From Squalus acanthias (lineage: Eukaryota), in assembly GCA_030390025.1 (NCBI GenBank), contig CM059425.1:260400001-260464000 (forward strand): a DNA stretch of 64,000 nucleotides. Direction: 5' to 3'. Positions 4,579-30,152 of the stretch are shown here, one piece after another. A model generated the notes under the pieces. That model searched no databases and had not been told where the DNA came from. It saw only the letters and a list, made by a program, of their open reading frames with translations. Made by a program: the position numbers and the translations under genes. Position 1 is the stretch's first letter, and each line of letters begins with the position of its first letter.

Positions 4579-7391
4579 TCTGAGCCAATATCACTTCTCA
4601 CCACTGCAGTGATCCCATCCTTTACCAACAAAGCCACCCCACCTCCTTTTCCTTTCTGTCTATCCTTCCGAATTGTCAAATACCCTGGAATATTCAGTTC
4701 CAGCCCTGGTCACCTTGCAACCACGTCTCTGTAATGGCAATCAGATCATACCCCTCCAAGTCACACACCATCCTGACTTAGAAGTATATTGCCAATCCTT
4801 CATCGTCGCTGGGTCAAAATCCTGACATTTCCTCCCTAACAGCACTGTGGGAGTACCTTCACTACAAGGACTGCAGCAGTTCAAGAAGGTGGCTCACCAC
4901 CACCTTCTCAAGGGCAACTCGGGATGGGCAATAAATGCCGGCCTTGCCAGCGATGCCCACATCCCATAAGTGAATTTAAAAATAATACCTATTTGTATCT
5001 ATTTGTGCCGTCAACTCATCTATCTTGTTACGAATGCTGCGTACATTCAGATATAGAGCTTCTAACTTTGTTTTTTTTTACCATTCCGCCTTGTTATGGA
5101 TCCATTTTCTGTTACACTCTTATTTTTAAACATTCTGTCCCTTCCTGTCACACGCTGGTTATTATTTCCCCCATCTCTATCCTGCTCTATTGTTTTCTCA
5201 TTTCTCATTGACTTTTTAAAATGAGTCAAGTATTCAATTTAATCCAGCACATCCAGGCTGAATTCATTGTTCTCATTTACTTAACAATACAACAAACCGA
5301 ATGAGACAAAGCAGGACTTCCTTAAATTGGTGTATGGGAGGGGTGCAGCGACACAGAGTACAGGGGGAGGGTGCGCTGGGGAACCAGGCGAGAGTCACAG
5401 TCACATTCTCGGTTCCTGAACCATTACAACCACCTCTCTCTCTGCTGATTCCAACCCTGCAACCCCCATTCCACATTCCTTCCCACCATCTTTCCACCAC
5501 TCACATTTCTGCTTCTCACTGAGCAGCTCATCCTCAGTTTTGAGACGGTCCCTTTCTACAAACTTTAAGAGCTTCTGAGCAAGTTTCTGCTGCTGCTTGT
5601 TGCTCAACAATCTTATCTTTATGTTCCTGGATTTCACTCTCCATTGCTTGCACCTCTAACTGTTTCTGTATCAGCATCTCGTTCTTTGCACTTTCCTTTT
5701 AGTTCTTTCAGAGTCTTCTCGTCCTGTTTGTTTCATTTCTTTTACTCTCCTTTCTGAGACCCCCAAACAGCCTGGGTTACAACCTTAGCCCCTGCGAGCA
5801 ATCCTTGTACCGTAACCCCAGTCCTGGCCTCTGTCGGGGTGTGTGGAAAGTCAGCTTTCGACATCTGGGCTCATTGACTCAAAGGATCTGCCTCTCCCAG
5901 CAGGACACTAACCTTTAAAGATGTCCCGCCATGTCTCTCCGATTATGCATCGATATATTCACCTGTGAGATTACTGTCCTCTCTTCTTCAGAATACAAAA
6001 GATGTCAAGCGAGATGCTGTAGTTGTTATCTAACTTTAAAGAATTTAATTTGACCCACAGTTTGTACCAGAAAGAAAGCAGTAACTTTTCATACAAACTT
6101 TTCCTTTTCTAGCGAGTGCAACTCAGGACAAAGAATTGATCGGATTCTTTGTCTCGGGCAGGGGTGATGGGTGAAGGGTACTTGGCTTCGGTCTTCCCAA
6201 TATTTAGTTGGTGGAAATTTCTGCTCATACAGTACTGGATGTCGGACAAACAGTCTGACAATTTAGAGACAGTGGAGGGGTTGAGATATGGTGGTGAGGC
6301 AGAGCTGGATGCCCGTCAGCGTACGTGAGTAAACTGACGCTGTGATTATGGATGATGTCGCCGAGGAGCAGCATGTAGATGAGAATTAGGAGGGGTCAAG
6401 GATAGATCCTTGGGGGATACCAGAGGTTTCCTGAGTCTGCTGTGCATTGAGTTTATCTACCTTACAGATGGCCAGTCCCCAACTAGATGCTTAACTTAAA
6501 AACACTCAAACTGTTGTTTTAAACAATCTTCTGTTGTTCACTTGAGTAGTAATGAATTCAGTGTTCGGGTTATAATCTCTTTATTTTTTTCTACTTCATC
6601 ATAAAAAACTATCTATAATTTCTTCAGAGTATAAAACAATTTACAAGCGGAGTTTTGTCAGCAGATTTGAACGTAGGCATGCGCTCATCCTTGTACACTT
6701 CTTCCTTCTCAAACATTAACATAAAAACTTATTTTTTAGACACTGTTTCTTCCTTATCAAACTGGAAATGGCATTGCCTTTTATGGTAGTCTCCGGTCAA
6801 TGCACCGTCTTTCAGCCGATACTTACGCACACAAGTTTATATTCCTCTACAGCATACGTACATCAATACCCTTTCGTGTAGGTTGCAGTAATATGTAGTG
6901 GAATGTTTATAGTATGGCACTACTATAAACATCCCAAGGCTTTACTTCAATCTTGAACATTGGCTATTGCTAGGGTGATCTGTAATTCTTTCTCCCTCTC
7001 TTTCTCTTTCCAATGATGTCAATCACTTTTTTTGCTCTCCATTGTAAGCTTTTTATTTCGACTGCATTAAATTGACAGCAAGACCAATTCTTTTGAAACA
7101 ATTTGGAATAAGTTTGTTAAACACACACACCCATGCACATCAAAACAATAGCCTACTGATATCCTATGGACTCTACTCGATGACAACAGGTAAGGTAATG
7201 GGTTAGAATTAAACAGACTTGTACTTCCCTGAGTCAAGCAATGCACGCGGCATTTTTCCTTGCTTCTTAGTCTGGTCTGTCGAGGGAGGGCTTCCTGCTT
7301 TTCCATGTGGTCATCCAGAGAGAGAGCGAGAGCCTTTGGGTTCCTTATTTTATATCTTTTTAAGTCCATTGTCTCTAGTCTAAATTGCTAA

Positions 7392-7568
7392 TGATGCGGA
7401 GATGCCGGTGTTGGACTGGGGTGGACAAAAGTGAGAAGTCGCACAACACCAGGTTATAGTCCAACAGCTTTATTTGAAATCATCACCTGACGAAGGAGCA
7501 GCCGCTCCGAAAGCTTGTGATTTCAAATAAAGCTGTTGGACTATAACCTGGTGTGGTGCGACTTCTCA
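7392..7568. mobile_element. Short palindromic non-autonomous Penelope-like element with a 12-bp TSD
   Basis: About 50-bp inverted arms around a hammerhead core; TSD ctaaattgctaa at 7380-7391 and 7569-7580. Confidence 0.8.
7482..7521 (+). ncRNA. Minimal type I hammerhead ribozyme
   Basis: atcac-CTGACGA-a-ggagc(agcc)gctcc-GAAA-gct-t-gtgat; stem I atcac/gtgat, stem II perfect, palindromic AGCT stem III. Confidence 0.75.
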
Positions 7569-8057
7569 CTAAATTGCTAAGACCACAGGATTGGGCCTTA
7601 GTTTCATGGCAGTTCTTGATTGGCTTTCCTTTGTACATGTGTCTGTCTGCAGTGGCTGGGGCCATTTCTTGATTAAGTTATTTGTTTGTTAACACCTTTT
7701 AATGGCTCTTGAGTTTCAATGGTGAGTTTCGATGGTGAGTTTCGATGGGTTTTCGATGCTGTCTCTGTGGGGGTTATCCTGTTATGCAGGTTTTCTTTGT
7801 TAAGTTTCGCGCCGTTGCCTTAAGCTCCGCTCCCAGGGAGATCCATACCCATCAAATTCATCTTTATTACATACATCTTATATTAATAGTCTCGAGTCCA
7901 TCACACATACAAAACATATATTTTTATTCTTACACCATTGAATGAGCAAAACACAAACACTTTTCAGAAGCTGAATTTGCCGAGTTCCCTGTACCAACAA
8001 AACCCTCCATTGTCTCAATCGTCAATGATGAAACTTTCCACCGATCCTCCACCAATG

Positions 8058-8233
8058 TTATGGCAGGAGATGAATTCCCATCACTCTCTCCTTGATCATT
8101 TGATGCTGTATTACGAGGGGCTCTCAAACACAGAAGTCTCTATTGGAATTTCAATTGAGCACTAAGAATGAGAAATGCCTTATCTTTTCTTTCAGAAGTT
8201 ACTTTACCTGATCCGCATCATCAGAAGCGGCAG
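8058..8233 (-). CDS. Copy A cytoplasmic exons: 26-nt exon 8233-8208 (AAASDDADQ) and putative last exon 8105-8058 (HQMIKERVMGIHLLP*)
   Basis: tattttcag acceptor and CAG|GTAAAG donor; taatacag acceptor; AATAAA on the minus strand at 7923-7928. The alternative is read-through to the stop at 8199. Confidence 0.55.
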
Positions 8234-11200
8234 CTGAAAATATTCCCCGTGTAACTATCTGTGAAGATGCCACAGTATTACCATGAAGTCCCACATCAGT
8301 AGAGCTTCCATTGTGAACCTTACCTCTCTTCAACTTCCAGATAGTAAACCCACTTAAAAGAAGGAAGATAATTAAAAAGGTGGTTCGAATGTAGAGGGTG
8401 ATGTTCAATTTGTCCTTGTCATCAGTGGGGAAGTGGATCTGACGGACGTCACTCCCGTGTTCATTTACAGCCACACAGCTGTAGTCCCCTCTCAGCGTTG
8501 GGTTAAGAATCTCTCCCACAGTTTGATGTTTGTCCGGCACTCGTGTGACTGTCGTGCTACTGCTGTCCACGGGCAGTGCGCTGTTTTCAGGGTCGATCCA
8601 TGTGATGTTTGCAGGTGGCTCCCCTTCAACCTTGCACACGATGGTGTCTCCAGTTATATTGTCGGTCACAACCGACAGCTCCAGGATGGTGGCTGGGGCT
8701 TGGGGAGGAAAGAGACAATGAGTTAACTCAATCTAATTAATCTTTATTAAACGGTCCGTGGTGACAACGTCCATTACGTGGCACTGAGAAACACGTGAGC
8801 ATGGAGAGGTGACACCCAACAGGAGATTGGATTGAAATATTCAGAGAGCAAGTGGACTGGCTCCTGATTGTAAAGGGACATGAGTTTGATGTTAACGGAG
8901 GAGGCGGATGGAATTAGCCTGAGTGAGTGGATCTGAACAACACAGCGGTCTGGAAATTGGGCTGCCTAAATGCCCTCCTAAACTGTTACAGGCGTCTCTC
9001 AGGTCTCAGCTCCTCACTGGGAGCGAATTTGCTCTTGTGTTTGTTCAACGTGATTTTATCACCTTCACCATATCATTGAGGTAGATGTTTCCTTACCGAC
9101 AACCTGTAGTCTCATCACATCCTGAGTCACGTTTTCCCCTTGTTCATTCTCGATGTGTACGTGACAGAAGTAGTCGCTGGTGTCGTTCAGCCCCAGGTCC
9201 CTCATCCTTATGGAGGCGTCTCCTTGGGTTGGGTTTCCGATCAGCTCATATCGATCTCCTTGATTTACACTAACTGTGTCAGTATAGTGAGAACCAGCGG
9301 CGAGGGAACGAGTGTGATTAAAAACAGTGGACTCTTGGCATGGATTCTCCTTCATCCAGAGGACAGTGATGGAGCTCGGATACCGGCCAGGGGGACTGAA
9401 GGTGCAGGGCAGTGTGGCAGAATCTCCCTTCATCCCAGTCACCGGCCGGTTATTGTTCTTATCAGCTGAGGTAGAGAAGGGTTTTAAAGAATGGACATTA
9501 TTCATTAGCACAGAGCATTAAACACAGTTTATACAACATATATGTCCCCTGTGCACTGTGAGGTTTGCTCTGACGACAGTGCAGGCAGACAACAGCACCT
9601 TACATTTAAACAGCGACTTTAACACAGTAAAACATTTCCTTCCTATTCACTCTCTCAAAACCCTTCATAATTTTGACAACCTCTACTAATTCTCCCCATA
9701 ACATTCTCTGCTCTGAGGAGAACAAGCTCAGTTTCTCCAGTCTCTCCACACAACAGAAGTGCCTCATCACTGGAACCATTCTAGTAAATCTCCTCTGCAC
9801 CCTCTCCAAGGCCTTGACATCGTTCCTAAAGAGTCCGGAATCGGACACAACACTCCAGCTAGGGCCCAACCTGTATTTTATAAAGGTTTAGCATAACTTC
9901 CTTGCTTTTGTACTCTTAACAGCTCTTCACAATCATCAACCTCACTCATTAATAATTCTCTTTATCCTACTCCAGTCCCACACCATTCTGATTGACTCTT
10001 AACTGCTCTCTGAAGTGGCTCAGTTGTATCAGCGCCTTCTCAGGGCAACGAGGGAAGGGCAATAAATGTCGGCCTTGGCAGCAACGTCCACATCACCAGA
10101 ACGAGTAAAACAAATACACACGGTTGTGATTGGATTATTTTACAGCACAACCTTATTTCTAGTTTGAATTATTCCTTACTTCTTATCTCGAGAACTCCAT
10201 GCTCGAGGCTAAATTTTCCTTTCTTTTCGTCCTTGAAATCCACATGACAAATGTACGTCTTCTTTGTGTCCGCTTTCTTCAGCTGTTTGATGATGATAGA
10301 AGCGTCGTTCTCCCTCGGGTTTCCCATCACTTGGTAGCGCTTGTCTACATTCAGGTGGATCTGATTCTTAAACCCATTGCTCTGTGAGTTTAGCGATGGA
10401 TAATTTGTGTAACTAAACACCAGTTTTGTCTTAGTTCTGTTCCAGGTGACGGTGATGTTGCCTTTATATCCAGGGTAAGGGTGAGTGAACTTGCAGAACA
10501 GAACAGTAGGCTTCCCTTCCCTAGCCGTCACCCTATCTGGGGTCTCCATGCTCCAGTTATTCTCACTGTGACCTGTGAGGACACACAGATGTCATGTTAA
10601 CACTTGACTGAGCCCAACAGTCAGACACTCCATGGGGGAACCACGACACACCCTGTACTGTCTGACATTCTAATGTCTATCTGAAACTGTGCTGAATTAT
10701 GGCCAGTTGTGTGCTGTGTGTCCACACTCAATAGGAAGTGGGTTGGAGTGCCTCCAGCCCACTGCACAGAGACTAAAGAAATAGAACCGGAGAGGCCTGC
10801 AGCACCGGAGGTCGTTCCACACCCCCTGTCTAAGCCTGCTCTTTCCTGGAGCCATCTTATCCCATCAGAGTATTCTGCCTTTAATACAAAAGAAAAGAAA
10901 GACTTGCATTTATATAGCATCTTTCACGACCTCAGCCTGTCCCAAAGCTCTTTACAACCAATGAGGGGTCTGGACAGAGTAGACAGAGAGACACTGTTCC
11001 AGTTGGCGGAAGGGTCGAGAACCAGAGGACACAGATTTAAGGTGATTGGCAAAAGAACCAAAGGCGACGAAAGAAAAAACTATTTTACGCAGCGAGCGGT
11101 TAAGATGGGGAATGCACTGCCTGAAAGGGTGGTGGAGGCAGACTCAATCACATCTTTCAAAAGGGAGTTGGATAAGTATCTGAAGGAAAACATTTTGCAG

Positions 11201-11619
11201 GTCTACGGGGAAAGGGCGGGGGAGTGGGACTCGATCAGAGCCAGCATGGGCTCGACGGGCCGAAAGGCCTTCTTCCGTGCTGTAACCATTCTATGATTCG
11301 ATGATTCTCTGATTCTATGTATTTATTGAAGTGGAGTCACTGTTGTAATATAGGAAACACGACAGCCAATTTGTGCACAGCAAGCTCCCACAAACAGCAA
11401 TGAAATAAATGGCCATGTCACCAGTTTTAGGTGTTGGTTGAGGGATAAATATCGTGCCTGTGCCGACTCTTTGAAATACCTCTCTAATTATTTCCACTCC
11501 CTTGCTCTTTCCCCATAGCCCAGAAGAAAGAAAGAAAATGGGTTCCTGCCTCCTCTTGGTGAATACATACGTTCTGCCGAGATGGCCAGGGCGAGTGCAC
11601 AAAACAAAATGCACAGCAT
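8058..11619 (-). CDS. Siglec-15-like V-V-C2 type I membrane receptor, copy A (6 coding exons, about 419 aa, apparently intact)
   Basis: GT-AG exons 11619-11571, 10572-10180, 9465-9097, 8698-8324, 8233-8208 and 8105-8058 join in frame (1260 nt; phases 1,1,1,1,0). V1 WSMETPDRV..VLFCKFTHP..GNPRENDAS..YICHVDF..HGVLEI and C2 APATILELSV..CKVEGEPPANITW resemble Siglec-15 as I recall it (WSMQVP..LPCTFTHP..GNPRRNDLS..YFCRVEF..HGVRL; APRIVNISV..CTAEGEPPPALAW). The last exon is the least certain. Confidence 0.85.
8324..8698 (-). CDS. Copy A C2-type Ig domain plus transmembrane exon (TM LYIRTTFLIIFLLLSGFTIW)
   Basis: Pyrimidine-tract acceptor, 375 nt, CKVEGEPPANITW..GDYSCVAVNEHGS, hydrophobic segment followed by KLKR, G|GTAAGG donor; ORF 8199..8669. 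Confidence 0.9.
9097..9465 (-). CDS. Copy A V-set Ig domain 2 exon
   Basis: ccttctctacctcag acceptor, 369 nt, GDSATLPCTF..W..GDASIRM..DTSDYFC, G|GTAAGG donor; ORF 9065..9511. Confidence 0.92.
9640..9920 (-). mobile_element. CR1 ORF2 3' fragment in the V1-V2 intron (paralogous copy at about 30695-30975)
   Basis: ALERVQRRFTRM..RLEKL..FSSEQR. Confidence 0.8.
10180..10572 (-). CDS. Copy A V-set Ig domain 1 exon
   Basis: ctcacag acceptor, 393 nt, B-strand Cys, C-strand Trp, YxC motif, GTAAGG donor; ORF 10169..10549. Confidence 0.92.
10960..11320 (+). mobile_element. CR1 3' fragment in intron 1
   Basis: MRGLDRVDRE..SRTRGHRFK; attctatg tail. Confidence 0.8.
11571..11619 (-). CDS. Copy A signal-peptide exon MLCILFCALALAISAE
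   Basis: ATG at 11619, hydrophobic 16-mer, phase-1 donor C|GTATGT that fits the phase-1 V1 acceptor; conserved in copy B. Confidence 0.85.
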
Positions 11620-11700
11620 TCTCTTCACTCCTTCAGTGCCCAGATCTCTCTGACGGCCGACCACCGACTGTGGAACTGCGACGGTTCCTCGCTATTTCTT

Positions 11701-11782
11701 GTTACTTCCTTCTTGAATCTGGGATTGCCAAAGAAAATAAAAATACTTGTGATATTTACCAGCCAGCTTCAGATGAGGAAGT
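11701..11782. promoter_or_regulatory. ETS/PU.1-type motifs upstream of the copy A leader
   Basis: GAGGAAGT at 11775-11782 (+) and GAAGGAAGTAAC at 11701-11712 (-); both retained in copy B (33603-33610 and about 33530-33541). Motif match only. Confidence 0.35.
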
Positions 11783-12645
11783 CTCTTTTGCTCCCTCCCC
11801 AGTCAGCTCAATGTCTGCACAGTGCCCCCATGTCTGGGAGCAACTGGCCTGCGCAGAAGCCTTGAAGTCAGACATAAGTTCTTCAGCACCTGCCACACCA
11901 CCCCCTGTAGACGTCTGCAACTTGAAACAACTATGGAAGGCACCAAACACTTGTAGAATTGCAGCGACAGTCAGAAGGAATCATCCAGCCACTGACCTGA
12001 AGGTAGTTGATGATCCTTTGAATCGTGCTGGTGGGGGGTCCTTCCTGCTGCTTAAAGCGCGTTCAGCTGTGCGCGCTTAATAGAGGGCGTTGGCTCGAGG
12101 GTGGAGCTTCAGAACGGCAGCGCTGACATCAGTATGGTCTGTCTGCTCTGCATACTTCCGGCGGACCTTAGCTGCGCACGGGCTGACGCCTTCACCAAGT
12201 TGGCCTCCGGCGTCATTCATGGCAGAAGTGTGCGCGTCTGCAGCAGACGCCATTTTGGTCCCCGAACTGCCCTCATAGCGCCCAAACCACGGGAGCTACT
12301 GAGCCCAATTTCCTGCCCCATGTCTTTACATTTAGTGTTGCAACTGGGCTAAATAGAAGGAAGGAGTTAATTATTTCTTGGAAAGCCCTTGGGTAAAAAA
12401 ACAGAAGTGGGTGGAGTCAGTCACCACATCACCAGTTTCAGACTTGCTGCACGCAAATAGATAAAAAAACAATCATTTGAAAATGTTCAAATTGATTTAA
12501 AACTAGACATCATCCTGGAACTGAACCATGTGATTCTCCAAAGCCCACATTTAAACCTTCATTTAACAGTGGTACAGTGTATTCTGTGGAGTTACAAATC
12601 TTACAATCAATTTAACTTCAAATAAAACTTGCTCCATGATCATCA

Positions 12646-13984
12646 GTCAATGATTCAATTTAATCCAGCACATCCAGGCTGAATTCATTGTTTTCAGTTA
12701 CTTAACAATACAACAAACCGATTGAGACAAAGCAGGACTTCCTTAAATTGGTGTATGGGAGGGGTGCAGCGACACAGAGTACAGGGGGAGGGTGCGCTGG
12801 GGAACCAGGCGAGAGTCACAGTCCCATTCTTGGTTCCTGAACCATTACAACCACCTCTCTCTCTGCTGATTCCAACCCTGCAACCCCCATTCCACATTCC
12901 TTCCCACCATCTTTCCACCACTCACATTTCTGCTTCTCACTGAGCAGCTCATCCTCAGTTTTGAGACGGTCTCTTTCTGCAAACTTTAACAGCTTCTGAG
13001 CAAGTTTCTGCTGCTGCTTGTTGCTCAACAATCTTATCTTTAAGTTCCTGGATTTCACTCTCCATTGCTTGCACCTCTAACTGTTTCTGTATCAGCTTCT
13101 CGTTCTTTGCACTTTCCTTTTAGTTCTTTCAGAGTCTTCTCGTCCTGTTTGTTTAATTTCTTTTACACTCCTTTCTGAGACCCCCAAACAGCCTGGGTTA
13201 CAACCTTAGCCCCTGCGAGCAATCCTTGTACCGTAACCTCGGTCCTGGCCTCTGTCGGGGTGTGTGGAAAGTCAGCTTTCGGCATCTGGGCTCATTGACT
13301 CAAAGGATCTGCCTCTCCCAGCAGGACACTAACCTTTAAAGATGTCCCGCCATGTCTCTCCGATTATGCATCGATATATTTTCCTGTGAGATTACTGTCC
13401 TCTCTTCAGAATACAAAAGATGTCAAGCGAGACGCTGTAGTTGTTATCTAACTTTAAAGAATTTAATTTGACCCACAGTTTGTACCAGAAAGAAAGCAAT
13501 AACTTTTCATACAACCTTTTCCTTTTCTAGCGAGTGCAACTCAGGACAAAGAATTGATCGGATTCCTTGTCTCGGGCAGAAAACAAATCTTCCTTTCCTT
13601 TGGCGTCTTGTTCCAATGTCTTACGTGGTTCTCTTGAAAAACCCCGTGTAGAATGAACTGTTTTATGTGGTTTCCTCTCCAAAATCTGCTGCTTAATTAT
13701 CAAAGGATCTCTTAACAGTTTGCAGACCTTGCTTCCTTATCTCTGCAACCGTCCGCATTGTTTCTTCCCGTCAGTTACCTCAGGTATAATCTTACCAAGG
13801 CTCCGTTTCATCCTGGCTAACACAGACGTATCTCTCACTCAGCATCCTGGACAATATGCATCCTGACTTCAGTCAATGTGACAGCGGAGTTCTTGACCAA
13901 GAAAGCAAAGGCTTCACCACAAGTCCATTATTTTAGTCTTCCTTAAAACATGTATCAAAAGTCCTCCACACCAGATCCTCCACA
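12646..13984 (-). mobile_element. Probable LTR-retroelement remnant (LTR about 13385-13984 plus leader/gag-like fragment); partial copies at 5224-6160 and 40420-41025
   Basis: TG start on the minus strand at 13984, ATTAAA, CA end, then a degenerate Lys/Gln-rich ORF; family not identified. Confidence 0.35.
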
Positions 13985-14242
13985 TTTCAACAAAACCAAC
14001 AACTTGTTTTCACACAGCACCTTTAATTTCCCACATTACAACAGTGACTCCGCTTTAAAAGTACTTCATTGGCTGTAAAGCACTTTGAAACGTCCGGTGG
14101 TCGTGAAAGGTGCTATATAAACACAAGTCTTTCTTTCTTTCTTAATGTAGTAAAATGTCCCAAGGTGCTTCACAGGAGTATTAAAAGAGAAAACTTTGAC
14201 ACCGAGCCACATAAGGAGATATTAGGGCAGGTGACCAGATGA

Positions 14243-15085
14243 CGGAGTGCAGATCGGAACAGAGTGTTAAGCTGCGAGTTTGGTTTGGGCAGGGCTAAGC
14301 AAGCTCTGTGCTGGAGAGCAGGTGAGAGTAATTAATTAATTAAGTGGTCTAATCTGGTTCTGTAACTGCCAGAGAGCTCACTTATTTAAATCTCAGCAGT
14401 ATAAATAAGGGAGGCTAGAGTGCAGTTTGTCACGGAGTGCAGATCGGAACAGAGTGTTAAGCTGCGAGTTTGGTGAGTGAGGGAGTAAATCTGAAAGGTT
14501 AATCTTTTATTTTTAGAAATTCTAGTCTTGTGTGCTTACAATTAGCATTTAAATTTACTGTTTCAAGTTTTAAGTTTCTTCCAGGCTTGCGCAGGGCTAA
14601 GCAAGCTCTGTGCTGGAGAGCAGGTGAGAGTAATTAATTAATTAAGTGGTCTAATCTGGTTCTGTAATTGCCAGAGAGCTCACTTATTTAAATCTCAGTA
14701 GTATAAGTAAGGGAGTCTAGACTGCAGTTTGTCATGGAGTGCAGATCGGAACAGAGTGTTAAGCTGCGAGTTTGGTGAGTGAGGGAGTAAATCTTAAAGG
14801 TTAATCTCTTATTTTTAGAAATTCTAGTCTTGTGTGCTTACAATTAGCATTTAAATTTACTGTTTCAAGTTTTAAGTTTCTTCCAGGCTTGCGCAGGGCG
14901 AAGCAAGCTCTGTGCTGGAGAGCAGGTGAGAGTAATTAATTAATTAAGTGGTCTAATCTGGTTCTGTAATTGCCAGAGAGCTCACTTATTTAAATCTCAG
15001 TAGTATAAGTAAGGGAGTCTAGACTGCAGTTTGTCATGGAGTGCAGATCGGAACAGAGTGTTAAGCTGCGAGTTTGGTGAGTGAG
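14243..15085 (+). repeat. About 302-bp tandem repeats in a CR1 5' UTR
   Basis: ggagtgcagatcggaacagagtgttaagctgcgagtttggt at about 14244, 14434, 14736 and 15038. Confidence 0.9.
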
Positions 15086-16658
15086 GGAGTTCGGTGAGGG
15101 AGGTGTTCCTTTCTTTTTCCATCTTTGTCAGCTTCCAGGAGAGCAGGAGCTAAAAAGCTGCACAAGAGGGGACAGAGAACCAGCGGTGAGTATTTCTACA
15201 GTATTTCTACATTCCAGTCATTAAAGTAAAAGTAAGGTCTCTAGTTTAGAGTAAGTAGTGTTTAAAGGGAAGTAAGATCCCAAGATATTTAATATTGTTT
15301 AATTTAAAGGGAGCAAATTAAGGATAGGACATGGCAGGGCAGCTCGGCAGCGTGGAGTGCTCCTCCTGTGCTATGTTGGAAGTCAGGGACACTATAGGTG
15401 TCCAAGGTGAACACATGTGCAGGAAGTGTCTCCAGCTGCAGCTACTCGAAATCCGCATTTCGGAGCTGGAGCTGCGACTGGAGTCACTGTGCAGCATCCG
15501 CGAAGCTGAGATCTTCATGGATAGCATGTTTAACAAGGTGGTCACACCGCAAGTAAAGAGTGCACAGGCAGACAGGGAATGGGTGACCACCAGACAGAGT
15601 AAAAGAACTAGGAACTAGGAACTAGGAAGCCCCCTGGGTCAATCTCCCTCTCCGACAGATTTTCCGTTTTGGATACTGATGGGGGAGATGGTTTCTCAGG
15701 GGAATGCAGCAAGAGCCAAGTCCATGGCACTACGAGTGGCTCAGCTGCACAGGACGGGAGGAAAAAGAGTGGGAGAGCAATAGTGATAGGGGATTCTATC
15801 ATAAGGGGAACAGATAGACGTTTCTGTGGCCGCAGACGTGACTCCAGGATAGTATGTTGCCTCCCTGGTGCCAGGGTCAAGGATGTCACTGAACGGCTGC
15901 AGGGCATTCTGAAGGGGGTGGGCGAACAGTCAGAGGTCGTGGTTCACATTGGCACCAACGACATGGGTAGAAAGAGGGATGAGGTCATGCAACAAGAATT
16001 TAGGGAGCTAGGTAGCAGATTAAAAAGCAGGACCTCAAAGGTTGTAATCTCTGGATTATTCCCGGTGCCACGTGCTAGTGAGTATAGGAATAAAAGGATA
16101 GAGCAGATGAATGCGTGGCTAAAGAGTTGGTGCAGGAGGGAGGGCTTTAGTTTCCTGGATCACTGGGTCGGCTTCTGGGGAAGGTGGGACCTGTACAAGT
16201 CGGACGGGTTGCACCTGAACCGAAACGGGACCAACATCCTTGCGGGGAGGTTTGCTAGTACTGTTGGGAGGGGGGGTTAAACTAACTTGGCAGGGGGATG
16301 GGATACGGAGTGGAGCTATAGTAGGGGGTGATGCACAGCCAAATACAGAGGAAAAAACAAGTCAGCCTGGAAGGCAGAGCAAATATGTAACAGCACAAAG
16401 GAGTATGGCAAGGCTGGATGGCATTTATTTTAATGCAAGGAGTCTTGCGAGTAAGGCAGATGAATTGAAGGTGTTGATGAACACATGGGAGTATGATATT
16501 GTTGCTATCACAGAGACATGATTGAGGGAGGGGCAGGACTGGCAGCTCAATATTCCGGGGTATAGAATCTTCAGGCGAGACAGAAGTGGGTGTAAAAGAG
16601 GAGGGGGTGTTGCAATATTAATCAAGGAGTCAATTACTGCTGTAAGGAGGGATAATAT

Positions 16659-19600
16659 ACATAGATACATAGATACATAGAAGATAGGAGCAGGAGTAGG
16701 CCATCCGGCCCTTCGAGCCTGCTCCGCCATTTAATGAGATCATGGCTGATCCTCCAATTCAGTATCCCGTCCCCGCCTTCTCTCCGTAACCCTTAACCCC
16801 TTTTGCCTGTAGAAATATATCTAATTCCCTCTTAAATATATTTAATGAGCTGGCGTACACTGCCCTCTGTGGCAATGAGTTCCACAGGTTCACCACCCTC
16901 TGAGTGAAGAAATTCCCCCTCATTTCTGTCCTAAATGGTTTAGCCCTTATCCTTAAATTATGTCCTCTAGTTCTGTTCTCACCCGCCAAGGGAAACATTC
17001 CTTCTGCATCTAGTCTGTCTAGACCTGTCAGAATTTTATACACTTCTATGAGGTCCCCTCTCAATCTTCTAAACTCCAGTGTGTACATCCCTAAACTACA
17101 TAGTCTCTCCTCATAGGTCAATCCCGCCATTCCTGGTATCAGCCTGGTGAATCGCCGCTGCACCCCCTCCATGGCAAGAACATCTTTCCTCAGATGAGGC
17201 GACCAAAACTGTACACAGTACTCGAGGTGTGGTCTCACCAGTGCCCTGTACAGCTGCAGCAAGCTAACCCTGTTCCTGTATTCCAACCCTTTTGCTATGA
17301 AGGCCAGCATACCGTTTGCCTTCTTGATCGCCTGTTGCACCTGCATGCTCGCCTTCAGTGACTGGTGTACAAGAACACCCAGGTCTCTCTGTACTTCCCC
17401 CTCTCCCAATTTATTGCCATTTAAATAATAATTTGCCCTCCCGTTCCTGCACCCAAGGTGGATAACTTCGCACTTGTCCACATTATAGTGCATCTGCCAT
17501 TTATCCGCCCAATCACCCAGTCTGTCCAAATCGCTCTGGAGCTTCCTGGTCTCCTCTTCTGAGCCCACCCCCCCTCCTAGTTTAGTGTCGTCTGCAAATT
17601 TGGAAATGCTGCATCCGACTCCCTGATCCAGGTCATTAATGTAAATTGTGAACAGCTGGGGACCCAGGACAGATCCCTGTGGTACCCCACTTGTTACTGC
17701 CTGCCATTCAGAAAATGAACCGTTTATTCCAACTCTCTGTTTTCTATCTGACAGCCAGTTCTCTATCCACGTCAATACTTTCCCCTTTATCCCATGAGCT
17801 TCAATTTTCCATGCTAATCTTTTATGTGGGACCTTGTCGAAGGCCTTTTGGAAGTCCAGGTACACCACATCTACTGGCTCACCCCCATCTATTTTACCAG
17901 TTACTCCCTCAAAAAATTCCAATAGATTAGTCAAGCACGATTTACCCTTTGTAAATCCATGTTGACTCTGTCCTATCCTGTCCCCATTTGCTAAGTGCTC
18001 CGCTATTTCATCCTTAATGATGGACTCCAGCATTTTGCCCACAACTGATGTAAGGCTTACAGGTCTGTAATTACCTGCTTTTTCCCTACCCCCCTTTTTG
18101 AATAGTGGGGTAACGTTAGCTACCCTCCAATCCATGGGCACTGTTCCCGAGTCTAATGAATTCTGAAAAATCATACTTAGTGCATCCGCTATCTCTGGGG
18201 CCACCTCCTTCAGTACCCTAGGATGCATGTTATCAGGCCCTGGGGATTTGTCCGCCTTCAATCCCTTTAGCTTCCTTAACACCATATCCTTAGAGATATT
18301 GATTTGCGTCAGTTCCTCCTTTGCCAATGTCCCTATTTTTCCCGATATCCCAGGGAGGTTTTTTGTGTTTTCCTTCGTAAAGACTGACCCAAAGTATGCA
18401 TTTAGTTGGTCTGCCATTTCCTTATTTCCCGTTATATATTCCCCCGTATCTGACTGCAATGGACCAACTTTGGTTTTCACCAGTCTTTTCCTCTTGATAT
18501 ACTTATAAAAGCTTTTGGAGTTCGTTTTTATATTTTCCGCCAGCTTGCTTTCGTAAGCTATTTTGCCCCTCTTGATTAAGCCCTTTGTCCTCCTTTGCTC
18601 TATCTTAAACTGTTCCCAATCTTCCGCTCTGGCACTTTTTTTGGCTATTTTATACACCCTATCTTTGGATTTTATGCTGTCTCTAATTTCCCCTGTTATC
18701 CACGGTTGAGTCACCTTTTTAGATTTCCTTTTATGTCAGATTGGTATAAACAATTTTTGCAATTTTGTCATTCTATCTTTAAATGCTTGCCATTGTTTAT
18801 CTACCTCCAGTCCTCCCAGGAACGTTGTCCAATCAGACCTACTCAGTTCCCGTCTAATGGCATCATAATTCCCCTTGTTTAAATTCAGGACCTTAGTCTC
18901 TGAGTCAATTTCTTTGCTCTCCATTTCGAGTGAGAAATCGATCATGTTATGATCGCTCTGACCCAAGGGTCCCCGTACAACAAGATTACTAATTAGTCCC
19001 TTCTCATTGCACAGTACCCAGTCCAATATAGCCTGTTCCCGAGTTGGTTCCTCGACATATTGATCCAGATAACCATCCCTTAAACACTCAAGGAATTCCT
19101 CCTCCTCATTATTTTTACTGATTAGGCTAGTCCAATCTATATGTAAGTTAAAGTCACCTATGATGACAGCTGTGCTCTTATTGCACGCTTCTCTAATTTC
19201 CCTCGTGATGCCCTCCCCAACCTCTATTTTACTATTTGGAGGCCTATATACCACTCCTATTAAATGTTTTTCGCCCCTCGCTATTTCTTAGCTCCACCCA
19301 TATAGATTCTGTATTAACTGAGTTAATATCCTTCCTTTCAATTGCATTTATCCCCTCTTTTACCAGCAATGCTACCCCTCCTCCCTTTCTTTTTTGTCGA
19401 TCCTTCCTAAATACTGAATACCCCTGTATGTTAAGCTCCCAGCCCTGCTCACCCTGCAACCATGTTTCCGTAATCCCAATTAGATCATAATTATTAACCT
19501 CTATTTCCACAGCTAATTCATCTACCTTGTTCCTGATGCTTCTCGCATTAAGGTATAAAACCCTCAGGCTTTTTTTATGCTCACATTTTTTATGAATTAG

Positions 19601-21368
19601 TTTGGCCCTTTGTTTTTTGTTCCTCACCCTTTTACCATTTATTTCTGTCTGCCTTTCACTTTCCTCTATTTCACTACATAGGTTTCTAGCCCCCTGCCAT
19701 ACTAGTTTAAATGCTCCCGAACTGCTTTATCAAAAATTACCCCGAGAACATCAGTTCCATCTTTGCACAGGTGTAGACCGTCCCTTTTGTATAGGTCACA
19801 CCTACCACAAAACTGGTTCCAATGCCTCAAAAATTTAAAACCCTCCCTCTTACACCACTGCTCAAGCCACGTATTTAGCCTAACTATCCTGTTCTCTGTA
19901 CTCTTACTAGCACGTGGCACTGGTAGTAATCCAGAGATTACTACCTTCAAGGTCCTACTTTTTAGCTTGGCTCCTAACTCCCTAAATTCTACTTGTAGGA
20001 CCTCTTCCCTTTTTTTAGCTACGTCGTTGGTACCAACATGTATCACGACAACTGGCTGTTCCCCCTCCCCCTCCAGAATGTTCTGCACCCGCGCCGAGAC
20101 ATCCTTGACCCTTGCACCAGGGAGGCAACATACCATCCTGGAGTCTCGGTCGCGACCACAGAAACCCCTATCTATTCCCCTTACAATCGAATCCCCTATT
20201 ACTATAGCCCTGCCACTCTTTTTCCCTCCCTTCTTTGCAACAGAGCCAGTCATGGTGCCATGAGCCTGGCTGCTGGTGCCTTCCCCCGATGAGTCATCCC
20301 CCCCGACAACAGCACCTAAGGCGGTGAACCTGTTGCTAAGGGAGACAACCCCAGGGGATTTCTGCACTACCTTCCTGCCCTTGCTCTGCCTTTTGGTCAC
20401 CCATGTACTATCTACGCTGGCCTTAACCTGCGGTGTGACCAACTCACTAAATGTGCTATCCACAACCCTCTCAGAATCGTGGATGCTCCAAAGTGAGTCC
20501 ATCCGCAGCTCAAGGGCCGTCATGCGGTCCCACATGAGCTGCAGCTGGACACACTTCCCGCACACATGGTTGTCAGGGACACAGGAAGCGTCCCTGATTT
20601 CCCACATGTTACAGGAGGAGCATGACACAGGTCCGAGCTCTACTGCCATGACTTAACCCTTATATTACTTTTTAATTTTCTAGTTTTAGTTTATTTATTG
20701 ACTTTTGTTTTCCCGAAGCTTACTTAGACCAATGTATACTGTACTCTTCTTATTCCTTTTTAAACTAACCAAATCCCACTAGTTTTAGTTTTACTTTCTA
20801 GGAAGGTTTGAGGAAAGTACTTACCAGTTAAGCCACCACCCTCCTTAAATGCCGTTCACCTGGGTGCTTCCCACCTGGTCCGCTTCCGGTCTCGTCTCTC
20901 CCGACAACAGCCTGTGAAAGAAAAGCCCGCGAAAGTGAATTCAAATACTCACAGGACCTCCGGTCTCGTCGCTCCCGACAACAGCCTGTGAAGAAAAGCC
21001 CGCGAAAGTGAGTTCAAATACTCACAGCACCTCACAGCACCTCCGGTCTCGTCGCTCCCGACAACAGCCTGTGAAGAAAAGCCCGCGAAAGTGAGTTCAA
21101 ATACTCACAGCACCTCACAGCACCTCCGGTCTCGTCGCTCCCGACAACAGCCTGTGAAGAAAAGCATGCGAAAGTGAGTTCAAATACTCACAGCACGTCA
21201 CAGCACCTCCAGTCTCGTCGCTCCCGACAACAGCCTGTGAAGAAAAGCCCGCGAAAGTGAGTTCAAATACTCACAGCACCTTGTCTCGTCGCTCCCGACA
21301 ACAGCCTGTGAAGAAAAGCCCGCGAAAGTGAGTTCAAATACTCACAGCACCTCACAGCACCTCCGGTC
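16659..21368 (-). mobile_element. Young full-length CR1 nested in the outer CR1
   Basis: Intact 315-aa ORF1 19702..20649; ORF2 in three frames (19244..19627, 18736..19254, 16759..18714 with FADD); ctatgtat tail; short TSD tat. Confidence 0.95.
20886..21368. repeat. About 6 copies of a 70-80-bp tandem repeat in a CR1 5' UTR
   Basis: gtctcgtcgctcccgacaacagcctgtgaagaaaagcccgcgaaagtgagttcaaatactcacagcacct repeated. Confidence 0.92.
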
Positions 21369-22094
21369 TATCTTAGCAGGTTCCTCTAATGAGGCCATAT
21401 GGGGAGAACTTAAAAACAAAAAGGGGGCAAGTACTTTGCTGGGAGTGTACTATAGGCCCCAAACAGTCAGCGGGAGATAGAGGAACAGATATGTAGGCAA
21501 ATTTCAGAGAAGTGTAGAAATAATAGGGTAATAATAGTAGGGGATTTCAACTTCCCCAATATTAACTGGGATAGTCAGAGTGTGAAAGGCTTAGAGGGTG
21601 CGCAATTCTTAAAGTGCATCCAGGAGAGCTTTTTGAGCCAGCATGTAGAAAGTCCATCAAGAGAGGGGGCGGTACTGGACCTAATTCTAGGGAATGTAGC
21701 CGGGCAAGTGGTAGAAGTGTTAGTAGGAGAGCATTTTGGTGACAGTGACCATAATTCGGTGAGATTTAAGGTAGTCATGGAAAAGGACAAAGATGGACCG
21801 GAAATAAAGGTTCTAAATTGGGGGAAGGCCGATTTTAATATGATAAGGCAGGATCTGGCCAAAGTGGACTGGGATCAGCTTTTTGTAGGAAAATCCACAT
21901 CAGAGCAGTGGGAGTCTTTCAGAAAGGAAATAGAGAGAGTACAACGGCAGCATGTTCCCGTAAAGGTCAAGGGTGGGACCAACAAGTCCAGGGAACCCTG
22001 GGTGTCAAGGGATATACGAGAATGGATTAGGAAAAAAAGGAAGGCTTTTGGCAGATACAAAGGACTAAAAACAGTGGAAGCCCTAGAGGAGTAT

Positions 22095-23970
22095 TAATCA
22101 TGGGAAACATGGAGATGACAAAAATGCTGAACAAATATTTTGTTTCAGTCTTTACGGTAGAGGACACTAAGAATATCCCAACACTGGACAAACAGGGGGC
22201 TCTAGTGGGGGAGGAGCTAAATACGATTAAAATCACTAAGGAATTGGTACTCAGTAAAATAATGGGACTCAAGGCGGATAAATCCCCTGGACCTGATGGC
22301 TTACATCCTAGGGTCTTGAGGGAAGTGGTAGTAGGAATTGTGGATGCTTTGGTAATAATTTTCCAAAACTCCCTGAACTCAGCAAAGGTCCCAGCAGATT
22401 GGAAAACTGCTAATGTAACACCCTTATTTAAAAAGGGTTGTAGGCAGAAGGCTGGAAATTATAGACCAGTTAGCCTAACATCTGTGGTGGGTAAAATTTT
22501 GGAGTCCATTATTAAGGAGACAGTAACGGAACATTTAGATAAACATAATTTAATAGGACAAAGTCAGCATGGCTTTATGAAGGGGAAGTCATGTCTGACA
22601 AATTTGCTCGAGTTCTTTGAGGACATAACGTACAGGGTGGATAAAGGGGAACCAGTGGATGTAGTGTATTTAGACTTCCAGAAGGCATTCGACAAGGTGC
22701 CACATAAAAGATTATTACTTAAGATAAAAAATCACTGGATTGGGGGTAATATTCTGGCATGGGTGGAGGATTGGTTATCTAACAGGAAGCAGAGAGTTGG
22801 GATAAATGGTTCATTCTCGGACTGGCAACCAGTAGCCAGTGGTGTTCCGCAGGGGTCGGTGCTGGGTCCCCAACTTTTTACAATCTATATTAACGATTTG
22901 GAGGAGGGGACCGAGTGTAACATATCAAAGTTTGCAGATGATACAAAGATGGGAGGGAAAGTAGAGAGTGAGGAGGACATAAAAAACCTACAAGGGGATA
23001 TAGACAGGCTGGGTGAGTGGGCGGAGATTTGGCAGATGCAATACAATATTGGAAAATGTGAGGTTATGCACTTTGGCAGGAAAAATCAGAGAGCAAGTTA
23101 TTATCTTAATGGCGAGAAACTGGAAAGTACTGGAGTACAAAGGAATCTGGGGGTCTTAGTGCAAGAAAATCAAAAAGTTAGTATGCAGGTGCAGCAGGTG
23201 ATCAAGAAAGCCAATGGAATGTTGGCTTTTATTGCTAGGGGGATAGAATATAAAAACAGGGAGGTATTGCTGCAGTTGTATAGGGTATTGGTGAGACCGC
23301 ACCTGGAGTACTGCATACAGTTTTGGTGTCCATACTTAAGAAAAGACATACTTGCTCTCGAGGCAGTACAAAGAAGGTTCACTCGGTTAATTCCGGGGAT
23401 GAGGGGGTGGACATATGAGGAGAGGTTGAGTAGATTGGGACTCTACTCATTGGAGTTCAGAAGAATGAGAGGCGATCTTATTGAAACATATAAGATTGTG
23501 AAGGGGTTGGATCGGGTGGACGCGGTGAGGATGCTCCCAATGATGGGTGAAACTAGAACTAGGGGACATAATCTTAGAATAAGGGGCTGCTTTTTCAAAA
23601 CTGAGATGAGGAGAAACTTTTTCACTCAGAGGGTAGTGGGTCTGTGGAATTTGCTACCCCAGGAAGCCGTGGAAGCTACTTCATTAAATAAATTTAAAAC
23701 AGAAATAGACCGTTTCCAAGAAGTAAAGGGAATTAGGGGTTACGGGGAGCGGGCTGGAAATTGGACGTGAGTTTGAGTTCGGATCGGTCAAGGCCCTGTG
23801 GGTGGCAGAGCGGGCCCAGTGGCCGAGTGGCCGGGTCCTGCTCCTACTTCTTGTGTTCTTTAGAGTTGAGGTTGGATCAGATCAGCCATGATCTCATTGA
23901 ATGGCGGAGCAGGCTCGAGGGGCCGATTGGTCTACTCCTGCTCCTATTTCTTATGTTCTTATGTTCTTAT
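22095..23970 (+). mobile_element. 5'-truncated CR1 (same family as 1-4580) nested in the outer CR1
   Basis: Open 556-aa RT 22100..23770; TSD gtat at 22091-22094 and 23971-23974; ttcttatg tail. Confidence 0.95.
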
Positions 23971-26900
23971 GTATAGAAAGTGCAGGGGGGTACTTAAAAA
24001 AGAAATTAGGAGAGCGAAGAGGGGGAATGAAATAACACTGGCGGGCAAAATAAAGGAAAATCCCAAGGTGTTTTATAAGTATATTAAGGGCAAGAGGATA
24101 ACCAGGGCAAGAGTAGGGCCCATTAGGGACCAAAGTGGCAATCTGTGTGTAGAGCCAGAAGATGTAGGTGGGGTTTTAAATGAATATTTTACATCTGTGT
24201 TCACTATGGAGAAGGACGATGTAGGCATAGAAATCAGGCAGGGGGACTGTGATATACTTGAACAAATTAGTATTGAGAGGGAGGAGGTACTAGCGGTTTT
24301 AGTGGGCTTAAAAGTGGATAAATCCCCAGGACCAGACAAGATGTATCCCAGGCTGCTGTGTGAGGCAAGGGAAGAGATTGCAGGGGCTCTGACACAAATT
24401 TTCAGAACCTCCCTGGCCACAGGGGAGGTGCCAGAGGACTGGAGGACAACTAACGTAGTACCATTATTCAAGAAGGGTAGTAGGGATAAACCAGGGGATT
24501 ACAGGCCATTGAGCCTAACATCAGTGGTAGGGAAATTATTGGAAAAAATTCTGAGGGACAGAATTAGTCTCCACTTGGAGAGGCAAGGATTAATCAAGGA
24601 TAGTCAGCATTGCTTTGTCAGGGGGAGATCATGTCTGACCAAATTGATTGCATTTTTCGAGGGGGTGACTAGGTGTGTGGATGAGGGTAGTGCAGTTGAT
24701 GTGGTCTACATGGACTTCAGTAAGGCTTTTGACAAAGTCCCGCATGGGAGACTGGTCAAGAAGGTAAGAGCCCATGGGATCCAGGGCAACTTGGCACATT
24801 GGATCCAAAATTGGCTTAGTGGCAGGAGGCAGAGGGTGATGGTCGAAGGTTGTTTTTGTGACTGGAAGCCTGTGTCCAGTGGTGTACCGCAGGGATCGGT
24901 GCTGGGTCCTTTGCTGTTTGTAGTGTACATTAATGATTTAGATATGAATGTAGGAGGTATGATCAGTAAGTTTGCAAATGACACGAAAATTGATGGGGTG
25001 GTAAATAGCGAGGAGGGAAGCCTCAGGCTACAGGACGATATAGACGGGTTGGTCAGATGGGCAGAACAGTGGCAAATGGAATTTAAACCTGAAAAGTGTG
25101 AGGTGATGCATTTTGGGAGGACTAACAAGGCAAGGGAATACACAATGAATGGTAGGACCCTAGGAAGGACAGAGGAATAGAGGGACCTTGGTGTGCATGT
25201 ACATAGATCCCTGAAGGCAGCAGGATAGGTAGATAAGGTGCTTAAAAAGGCATATGGGATGCTTGCCTTCATTTGCCGAGGCATAGAATATAAGAGCAGA
25301 GAGGTTATGACGGAGCTGTACAAAACAATAGTTAGGCCACAGCTGGAATACTGTGTGCAGTTCTGGTCGCCACACTATAGGAAGGATGTGATTGCATTGG
25401 AGAGGGTGCAGAGGAGATTCACCAGGATGTTACCTGGGCTGCAGCGCTTCAGCTATGAAGAGAGACTGGACCGGCTGGGGTTGTTTTCCTTAGAGCAGAG
25501 AAGGCTGAGATGGGACCTGATTGAAGTGTACAAAATTATGAGGGGCATAGATAGGGTAGATAGAAAGGAACTTTTCCCCTTAGTAGAGGGGTCAATAACC
25601 AGGGAGCACAGTTTCAAGGTAAGGGGCAGGAGGTTTAGAGGGGATTTGAGGAAAACTTTTTCACCCAGAGGGTGGTTGGAATCTGGAACTCACTGCCTGA
25701 AAGGGTGGTAGAGGCAGGAACCCTCACAATATTCAAGAAACATTTAGATGAGCACTTGAAACGCCATAGCATACAAGGCTACGGACCAAGTGCTGGAAAA
25801 TGGGATTAGAATAGACAGGGCTTGATGGCCGGCGCGGACACGATGGGCCGAAGGGCCTCTTTCTGTGCTGTATAACTCTATGACTCTATGATTCTGTGAC
25901 CAAACGCTTGGTCAAAGAGGTAGGTTTTAAGGAGCGTCTTATTGGAGGATTGAGTGGCAGAAAGACAGAAAGGTTTAGGGAGGGAATTCCAAAGCTTAAG
26001 GCCTTGGCAGCTGAAGGCACGACTACCAATGGTTGAGCGATTATAATCAGGAATGTTCAAGAGGCCAGAATTAGAAGAGTGCATATTACAGAGCTAGAGA
26101 AGGGCGAGGCCATTGAGGGATTTAAAACAAGGATGAGAATTTTAAAATCGAGGCATTGCTTAACCGGGAGCCAATGTAGGTCAGCGAGCACAGGGGTGAT
26201 TGGTGAAGGCTACTTGGCTTCGGTCTTCCCAATATTTAGTTGGTGGAAATTTCTACTCATACTGTACTGGATGTCGGACAAACAGTCTGACAATTTAGAG
26301 ACAGTGGAGGGGTTGAGAGATGGTGGTGAGGCAGAGCTGTATGCCCGTCAGCGTACGTGAGTAATCTAACGCTGTGATTATGGACGATGTCGCCGAGGAG
26401 CAGCATGTAGATGAGAAATAGGAGGGGTCAAGGATAGATCCTTGGGGGATACCAGAGGTTTCCTGAATCTGCTGTGCAGTGAGTTTATCTACCTTACAGA
26501 TGGCCAGTCCCCAACTAGATGCTCAACTTAAAAACACTCAAACTGTTGTTTTGAACAATCTTCTGTTGTTCACTTGAGTAGTAATGAATTCAGTGTTCGG
26601 GTTATAATCTCTTTATTTTTTTCTACTTCAACATAAAAATCTATCTATAATTTCTGCAGAGTATAAAACAATTTACAAGCGGAGTTTTGTCAGCAGATTT
26701 GAACGTAGGCATGCGCTCATCCTTCTACACTTCTTCCTTCTCAAACATTAACAGAAAAACTTCTTTTTTTATACACTGTTTCTTCCTTATCAAACTGGAA
26801 ATGGCATTGCCTTTTATGGTAGTCTCCGGTCAATGCACCGTCTTTCAGCCGATTCTTACGCACACAAGTTTATATTTCTCTACAACATACGTACATCAAC

Positions 26901-27782: not shown

Positions 27783-28264
27783 CTGTTCCGCATCATCAGA
27801 ACCAGCAGCTGAAAACATTACCGGTGTAACTATCTGTGAAGATGCCACAGTATTACCATGATGTCCCACACCAGGAGAGCTTCTATTGTGAATCTTCAAC
27901 CTCCAGATAGTCAAAGCAATTGAAAGAAAGAAGATAATTGAAATGGAGGTTCGAATGTAGAGGTCGATGTTCAACTTGTCCTTGTCATCAGCGGGGAAGT
28001 GGATCTGACGGACGTCACTCCCGTGTTCATTTACAGCCACACAGCTGTAGTTTCCTCTCAGCGTTGGGTTAAGAATCTCTCCCACAGTTTGATGTTTGTC
28101 CGGCACTCGTGTGACTGTCGTGCTACTGCTGTCCACGGGCAGTGCGCTCTTTTCAGGGTCGATCCATGTGATGTTTGCGGGTGGCTCCCCTTCAACCTTG
28201 CACACGATGGTGTCTCCAGTTATATTGTCGGTCACAACCGACAGCTCCAGGATGGTGGCTGGGG
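27783..28264 (-). CDS. Copy B C2-TM-cytoplasmic exon (former short intron read through in frame)
   Basis: ORF 27774..28235; TM LYIRTSISIIFFLSIALTIW; next donor CAG|GTAAAG at 27782. Confidence 0.8.
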
Positions 28265-30123: not shown

Positions 30124-30152
30124 TCATATCATTGACATAGATGTTTCCTTAC

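Follow-up and report, generated by a model that had tools for sequence, protein, structure and literature searches.

The window analysed here, i.e. the whole stretch of 64,000 nt from Squalus acanthias, contains two tandem copies (A and B) of one gene on the minus strand, set in repeat-rich DNA. At the site of the arginine that is essential to Siglecs (strand F of the N-terminal V domain) copy A has a histidine, and the Arg codon of copy B is out of frame. Taken as a whole, the reading that we prefer, and consider rather likely from sequence comparison and from analogy with characterised Siglecs, is that copy A, owing to a recent CpG transition, can no longer recognise sialic acid at the canonical site, its first V domain having retained the fold and the pocket aromatics. 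The single replacement appears to be one instance of a wider tendency, namely, the repeated loss of this Arg within a family of Siglec-15-like receptors of cartilaginous fishes.

Results and discussion

Two tandem copies of one receptor gene

Each copy consists of a signal exon, two V-set exons (V1 and V2) and an exon for a C2 domain plus the transmembrane (TM) helix. A tblastn search of the window with the three domains recovered A and B only and no third copy. The recognised features are listed below.

5221..36089, minus strand: tandem duplication (self-blastn blocks, 93-97% identity)
About 5221-12646: duplication unit A (self-blastn)
12642-13579 plus 26191-36089: duplication unit B, split by retroelement-rich inserts
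11571..11619, minus strand: copy A exon 1, signal peptide; ATG at 11619, phase-1 GT donor; tblastn match to Heptranchias P0001 residues 1-18, 78% identity
10180..10572, minus strand: copy A exon 2, V1 (N-terminal V-set domain); Pfam V-set E 2e-10, best PDB match Siglec-15
10244..10246, minus strand: CAT, His109 of copy A V1, at the Siglec-15 Arg143 position
9097..9465, minus strand: copy A exon 3, V2 (second V-set domain) with the family-wide His; Pfam V-set E 1.5e-16, Siglec-15 E 1e-12
8324..8698, minus strand: copy A exon 4, C2/I-type Ig domain and TM helix with Arg at helix position 6; donor GAG/GTAAGG retained
8199..8323, minus strand: open read-through frame past the copy A TM donor; ends at TAA 8199-8201, without Tyr motif
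33400..33448, minus strand: copy B exon 1, signal peptide; same as A (0/49 differences)
31238..31631, minus strand: copy B exon 2, V1; 1-nt insertion in the T run 31307-31310, premature stop at 31267-31269
31302..31304, minus strand: CGT, Arg codon of copy B V1, out of frame as written
30153..30521, minus strand: copy B exon 3, V2, open, His at the equivalent site
27774..28264, minus strand: copy B exon 4, C2 and TM, Arg at helix position 6; stop at 27774-27776

A repeat with three 97-98% identical copies (4577-6161, 12642-13579 and 39777-41025) flanks and separates the two genes and may have mediated the tandem duplication. The window is otherwise mostly occupied by retroelement ORFs (reverse-transcriptase and endonuclease-like; 829-4187, 15318-25711, 36174-38787, 41943-43361, 56906-58453 and 62360-63418), which were picked out by eye from the ORF list and which we take to be CR1-like and Penelope-like. 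No neighbouring host gene was recognised beside A and B in the 64 kb.

The essential-arginine site

On the minus strand positions 10241-10249 read TGT CAT GTG (Cys-His-Val), which places the His codon of copy A V1 at 10244-10246, as the earlier note on this DNA had it. The V2 exons of A and B both read YFCHVHI, also as described there. For V1 of copy B that note had given YIC-R-VDF; the codon CGT is indeed found at 31302-31304, but the motif exists in the shifted frame only and the written frame gives Y-I-L-S at the Arg site.

The equation of the site with the F-strand Arg of Siglec-15 stands: V1 of copy A aligns without gaps to YFCRVEF of Siglec-15 (PDB 7zoz; phmmer E 6e-16, 62 bits, vs 1e-4 and 25 bits for CD33) and the structural match is to 7zoz as well. 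The predicted model of the domain has 7zoz as best Foldseek match (E 9e-11) and superposes on it with Z 17.9 and rmsd 1.6 over 118 residues, the next entry having Z 14.2. The assignment of His109 to Arg143 derives from the sequence alignment anchored at the F-strand Cys, the structure comparisons giving ranges rather than residue pairs. An essential Arg elsewhere in V1 was considered and ruled out, the F-G region aligning gaplessly to 7zoz. In the same alignment Trp6 and Phe120 of copy A correspond to Trp44 and Tyr154 of Siglec-15; a counterpart of Tyr87 was not identified in copy A V1, and its only cysteines are Cys26 and Cys108.

In Siglec-15 the salt bridge to sialic acid is formed by Arg143, next to Cys142; binding is abolished by R143A, and simulations show CH-pi contacts of Trp44 and Tyr154 (PMC10264397). 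The general claim that loss of the Arg abolishes binding is thereby confirmed for Siglec-15. An Arg-to-His polymorphism at the same site occurs in ape SIGLEC5/14, and the His forms are described as failing to recognise sialic acid (PMC7379906). By homology and by these two analogies, copy A would be expected to have lost canonical sialoside binding, as had been proposed. We infer by homology that the Arg forms of the family bind sialic acid, and two points weigh against our reading here. First, the Arg forms are presumed lectins by sequence, and zebrafish Siglec-15, with the Arg present, showed weak binding to the tested glycans (PMC7226832). Second, Arg-independent sialoglycan binding exists in Siglec-6 (PMC10122656), and V1 of copy A is strongly basic (+9).

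CpG transitions of CGN codons yield His, Cys, Trp and Gln. The suggestion that CGT became CAT by a CpG change, which may recur, is the better-supported half of the earlier interpretation, with the outgroups showing the direction (CGT to CAT, in copy A) at the sequence level; deamination as the cause is our inference from the sequence and general background, a literature search having given no passage in its support. In flanking non-coding DNA 23/258 CpG positions differ between the copies, vs 110/4662 positions elsewhere, the CpG rate being inflated in that a site was scored as CpG if either copy had it. The Arg/His difference is 1 of 30 in a 253-nt V1 tract and, as a single difference, is not beyond chance. 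An origin of the His by copying from V2 was ruled out: the codons differ (CAT vs CAC), so do those on either side, and the CGT of copy B needs no more than a single G-to-A change to give CAT.

Recurrent loss of the arginine in V1 and an old histidine in V2

The V1 search (8 matches) and the three-domain search (30 matches) returned, where a species was given, proteins of sharks, rays or chimaera only, whose names are automatic annotations and not tested functions. One match without a stated species, P0134, was treated as Callorhinchus because it is nearly identical to P0124, which is named as such. No single-domain relatives were found at E 1e-15. The closest relative is from Heptranchias perlo, with about 70% identity per Ig domain and 78-82% in the signal exon.

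Among 18 named V1 domains the site holds Arg in 8, Leu in 7, and Gln, Trp and Cys in one each; two proteins with models missing most of V1 were excluded, and residues were scored at the protein level. Two of 14 further representatives also have His there, P0021 in its first V domain and P0023 in a later one. On the tree of V1 sequences A and B group as sisters (99/92) beside the Arg-bearing Heptranchias protein (92/86, not starred, for the three together). The Cys form pairs with an Arg form in Callorhinchus (100/100), and a single weakly supported group (82/99) unites the Leu forms with the Trp form and an Arg-bearing Mustelus protein. Judged from these sequences, Arg, which is present in Heptranchias and most relatives that lack a TM Lys, is ancestral in V1 and has been lost at least three separate times (to His, Cys and Leu), and probably four.

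An aromatic residue (Phe/Tyr) occupies the Tyr154 position in 8/8 Arg domains and in 1/10 non-Arg domains (Fisher p 4e-4, a value that is overstated, as relatives share states and are not phylogenetically independent). Of the indirect evidence that the Arg forms are real lectins, this covariation is the strongest. Because Trp6 and Phe120 remain in copy A, its loss of Arg looks recent.

In V2 the equivalent site holds His in 29/32 domains, Tyr in 2 and Arg in 1 (one protein per gene, 26 proteins, from chimaera to rays), or His in 32/36 with isoforms counted. The column ranks 22 of 114 in conservation (91%, like a core residue), although the corresponding residue of Siglec-15 faces the ligand. 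In the whale shark protein V2 carries Arg at this site, and V1 carries Leu. A second loss in Squalus acanthias as the origin of the V2 His was ruled out by its conservation across cartilaginous fishes; it is an old feature of the second domain, where sialic acid binding is not expected. The survey of the site across paralogs and species that the earlier note had called for thus finds, at the residue level, repeated loss of Arg in V1, and it sets the ancient V2 His outside the event. Domain number varies within the family, V2 exons being duplicated in Heptranchias, Amblyraja and Rhinoraja models (P0001, P0014, P0012, P0133 and P0138).

Two branches of the family

Twelve named relatives carry a Lys at position 8-9 of the TM helix and have tails of 4-9 residues, except for two chimaera models. 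Five other relatives have ITIM-like tails and no basic TM residue, a combination seen in Heptranchias, Heterodontus P0135, Narcine and Rhinoraja P0129. Of the TM-Lys proteins from sharks and rays in which V1 is complete, 7/8 have Leu at the Arg site; in P0003, P0004, P0006, P0007, P0126, P0127 and P0128 (V1) the G-strand aromatic is gone as well, vs P0005. The sole exception among these shark and ray proteins, in Mustelus, has both Arg and Phe, kept or regained.

In V1 and TM sequence A and B side with the branch without TM Lys, and they have none themselves. Helix position 6 is Arg in both (within about 8324-8420 in A and 27893-27990 in B) and in three ray proteins, Gly in Heptranchias and Trp in Heterodontus P0135. 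A TM Arg that pairs with FcR-gamma lies near the outer end of the helix. In paired-receptor layouts inhibitory members occur with activating ones, and in activating LILRs a TM Arg pairs with FcR-gamma (PMC3533184); TM Lys has its role with DAP10/12 (PMC7226832). By analogy, the TM Arg of A and B could possibly couple to FcR-gamma. Sequence comparison thus indicates that sharks and rays have a paired inhibitory/activating Siglec-15-like family. The matches from any one species have a longest contig of identical length, which suggests that the family genes are clustered.

Divergence between the copies

In aligned non-coding DNA A and B differ in 133 of 4936 columns (2.7%). In V1 there is 1 difference in the first 140 nt and there are 30 in the last 253 nt, and the stalk and TM helix differ at 13/93 positions; the densest and emptiest stretches lie beyond permutation (0 and 14 of 5000). 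Of the 22 amino-acid differences in V1, 21 fall from residue 47 on, in a tract that ends at the exon 3' end. Polarised against Heptranchias, 7 of them arose in A and 10 in B, with 5 unassigned, so the contrast that the earlier note had drawn between an intact His copy and a broken Arg copy, correct as to the codons, is weaker than it seemed, V1 of copy B being the more derived (10 vs 7 changes). The net charge of V1 is +9 in A, -2 in B and +10 in Heptranchias, i.e. A stays basic and B has become slightly acidic, with two Lys beside the pocket lost. Because of its more numerous derived changes, the acidic turn and the lost pocket Lys, copy B is, by sequence, not a frozen ancestral binder.

Replacement differences in V1 are threefold above the non-coding rate (p 5e-6), an excess that is compatible with selection acting on A and B alike and hard to square with a B that has long been dead; but the synonymous sites of V1 are raised too, and against these dN/dS is 1.24 (p 0.81). 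The corresponding values for V2 (3.3; 11 vs 1, p 0.31) and TM (1.57) are not significant against their own synonymous sites either, and that for C2 is 0.47 on 5 differences. Positive selection was considered and is not established for A and B, dN/dS being indistinct from what their own synonymous sites give, and diversifying selection cannot be separated from gene conversion as a source of the V1 divergence. The segments 10433-10880 and 31492-31939 (intron 1 and the 5' third of V1) differ at 2 positions in about 450 nt, adjoin the most divergent tract, and look like a recent gene-conversion tract.

These data bear directly on an adaptive ligand switch, according to which the V1 face of A was selected for a protein, a polyanion or an acid-dependent glycan, with His109 as a working residue, and B diverged elsewhere. 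The clustering of the amino-acid differences from residue 47 on exceeds all 5000 permutations and the A/B difference of 11 in net charge points the same way, as does a precedent, since Siglec-5/14 bind a bacterial protein (beta protein) independently of sialic acid (table in PMC6288428). We nevertheless regard such a switch as unlikely: V1 dN/dS is not distinguishable from 1, an older tract or gene conversion explains the clustering equally well, and the replacement of Arg by five different residues fits loss better than a His-specific function. The proposal in the earlier note of a switch to a specific new ligand, or to pH-dependent binding, is unsupported.

State of copy B

Copy B has a single frame break, the extra T that makes a run of 4 (31307-31310) of what are 3 in A (10249-10251), with the resulting stop at V1 codon 121; its other exons are open. 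A 9-nt in-frame deletion after 27893 removes the donor of the TM exon and the frame continues to the stop at 27774-27776. No tail exons were found between B and A, an interval that lies wholly within the window (best score 39 vs 49-79 for the control), and copy B is a partial copy whose own tail exons are absent.

As the aligned non-coding DNA holds four other 1-nt indels between A and B, a real frameshift in B is plausible, and a single such indel is nothing unusual in some 1.2 kb of coding DNA under relaxed constraint. The alternative is an effect of the assembly, in which the extra T would be a homopolymer base-call error, or A and B two haplotypes laid in tandem, and the Arg/His difference would be allelic or lie between working paralogues. 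That the one frame break is one base in a T run, with the other exons open and the 9-nt deletion in frame, is what such an error would look like; V1 of copy B also has many replacement changes, as if recently functional, and Arg and His are polymorphic within ape species (PMC7379906). The run is short, however (3 to 4), and in our judgement 2.7% non-coding divergence with kilobase-sized inserts is much for alleles, so that we hold both forms of this explanation, taken together, to be very improbable.

State of copy A

The description of copy A as intact holds for its four exons (signal, V1, V2 and C2-TM), which are open, in phase 1 and GT-AG bounded, but not further, as no tail exon was found in the window. 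Seven relatives' tails were searched against 1-8354 and 11625-27905, and two tails against the whole window on both strands; the best score for a tail piece was 39, vs 32-45 for shuffled pieces and 49-79 when two shark tails were compared as a positive control. Because just 8.3 kb downstream of the TM exon are covered, the tail exons of copy A may lie beyond the left edge of the window.

Past the TM donor the frame reads through to a common stop in A (8199-8323) and B (27774-27892), with 10 differences in 115 sites (9 replacement, 1 silent). AATAAA-type sites follow in both copies (7928 and 7868 in A), and a second donor-like CAG/GTAAAG lies just 5' of the stop. This sequence may be a new short tail; it may also be open by chance, because comparably long open frames follow 27/105 donor-like sites in the window.

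A second alternative to our reading is that both copies are decaying: A, too, would have lost its function or be truncated, and the His would be a neutral CpG change in a gene under relaxed constraint. The lack of an ITIM-tail exon in the 64 kb would fit this, as would a V1 donor that has moved from CAG/GT to GAA/GT (two exonic changes in GAA/GTAAGG, 10180-10182, vs CAG/GTAAGG of copy B, the GT site remaining), a less hydrophobic TM helix (1.91 in copy A vs 2.52 in Heptranchias and 2.81 in Heterodontus) and N-glycosylation sequons, absent from Heptranchias, beside Trp6 and in the C-C' region. Nevertheless, the four exons of A are open, in phase and properly bounded, its invariant Ig-core residues are retained in a V1 model of high confidence (pLDDT 88.5), dN/dS is 0.47 in C2 (if on 5 differences only), and tail exons may lie beyond the 8.3 kb covered. 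Decay of both copies therefore strikes us as quite improbable.

If the V1 donor of copy A failed to splice, the product would be a lone V domain, secreted, that stops 3 residues further on. The V1 sequons are at residues 5 and 44 in both copies, with another at 53 in B, and those beside the pocket Trp6 and in the C-C' region could cover the site irrespective of the residue at 109.

Relation to known Siglecs

Siglec-15 (7zoz) is the best sequence and fold match of both V domains; the F-strand Cys before the Arg site, the Trp44/Tyr154 positions (Trp6/Phe120) and the layout of V, C2 and TM are common to both. A and B differ from it in having two V domains, in lacking the second disulfide (C95-C104) and in having, instead of the TM Lys for DAP10/12, an Arg at helix position 6, and A has His at the Arg143 site. 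Compared with a SIGLEC15 orthologue, A and B thus have the closest V domain and the F-strand Cys-Arg adjacency, but not the one V plus one C2 domain, the C95-C104 disulfide or the TM Lys, and we do not file copy A as one. Of the marks of a functional Siglec, V-set, C2 and a single TM helix are present (with the extra V between), as are the A- and G-strand aromatics; the essential Arg is not. Membership of the chondrichthyan Siglec-15-like branch without TM Lys is indicated by the V1-V2-C2-TM order, the V2 His and the grouping of V1 with Heptranchias; that protein resembles A and B in exon and domain layout, signal peptide and V2 His, and differs in its V1 Arg and in the ITIM-like tails, without basic TM residue, of its kind.

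Great-ape Siglec-5/14, human Siglec-XII and SIGLEC17 have an Arg lesion at the same site, which in SIGLEC5/14 is likewise Arg to His, and by analogy copy A would work like the ape His variant. The resemblance to ape CD33-related Siglecs is parallel and independent, as A and B score 62 bits with Siglec-15 and 25 with CD33. Frameshift null alleles and gene conversion between neighbours are also found in primate Siglecs (PMC7379906, PMC6288428), and a review counts point mutation of this Arg among the ways in which Siglecs evolve rapidly when pathogens mimic their ligands (PMC13358205). The Arg of Siglec-15 is described as conserved down to lower vertebrates in a study of fish that, in the part available, is without sharks (PMC7226832). 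A loose literature search for Siglecs in cartilaginous fishes gave, among the titles listed, no work on the chondrichthyan family, which is weak evidence of absence. Supplements of genome papers may list these genes. A term search of PMC4042635 found nothing, and the whale shark genome paper mentions Siglecs once, in passing (PMC8455134).

A probable course of events

According to our preferred reading, A and B would be lineage-specific tandem copies of a chondrichthyan Siglec-15-like receptor, derived from the ITIM-tailed branch of a paired family. By homology, the ancestral V1 would have bound sialic acid via the F-strand Arg, flanked by the A-strand Trp and the G-strand aromatic. After the A/B split, deamination of a methylated CpG presumably turned the CGT of A into CAT, the direction being given by the outgroups. 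The His is short and mostly neutral at body pH; copy A would thus retain fold and display without the salt bridge and would be blind, or nearly blind, to sialosides at the canonical site. Copy B would have kept the Arg codon and, as a partial copy, become a null gene or null allele by the 1-nt insertion. The change would be a further case of the birth, Arg loss and death that recur in Siglec clusters, and may have been tolerated by redundancy or favoured as an escape from sialylated mimics.

A more far-reaching scheme, which we consider doubtful, would have a chondrichthyan paired Siglec system arise from a Siglec-15-like gene independently of the mammalian CD33 cluster. With the same turnover as there, the ITIM branch would mostly keep the Arg but lose it repeatedly, the DAP12-type branch, with Leu in sharks and rays alike, would have had a non-sialic ligand since before the shark/ray split, and Squalus acanthias would have gained the TM Arg and shed the tail, to yield a new activating FcR-gamma-type pair of A (His, basic) and B (Arg, acidic, with a null allele segregating) under selection for different ligands.

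Conclusions

Alone, the single Arg-to-His change matters little, since the same lesion is on record for ape Siglecs. What makes it valuable is that it draws attention to a receptor family of sharks, rays and chimaeras that has apparently not been studied. In this family one scaffold occurs naturally with Arg, His, Leu, Cys, Gln or Trp at the site, which gives a ready panel for finding out what Siglecs without the Arg bind.
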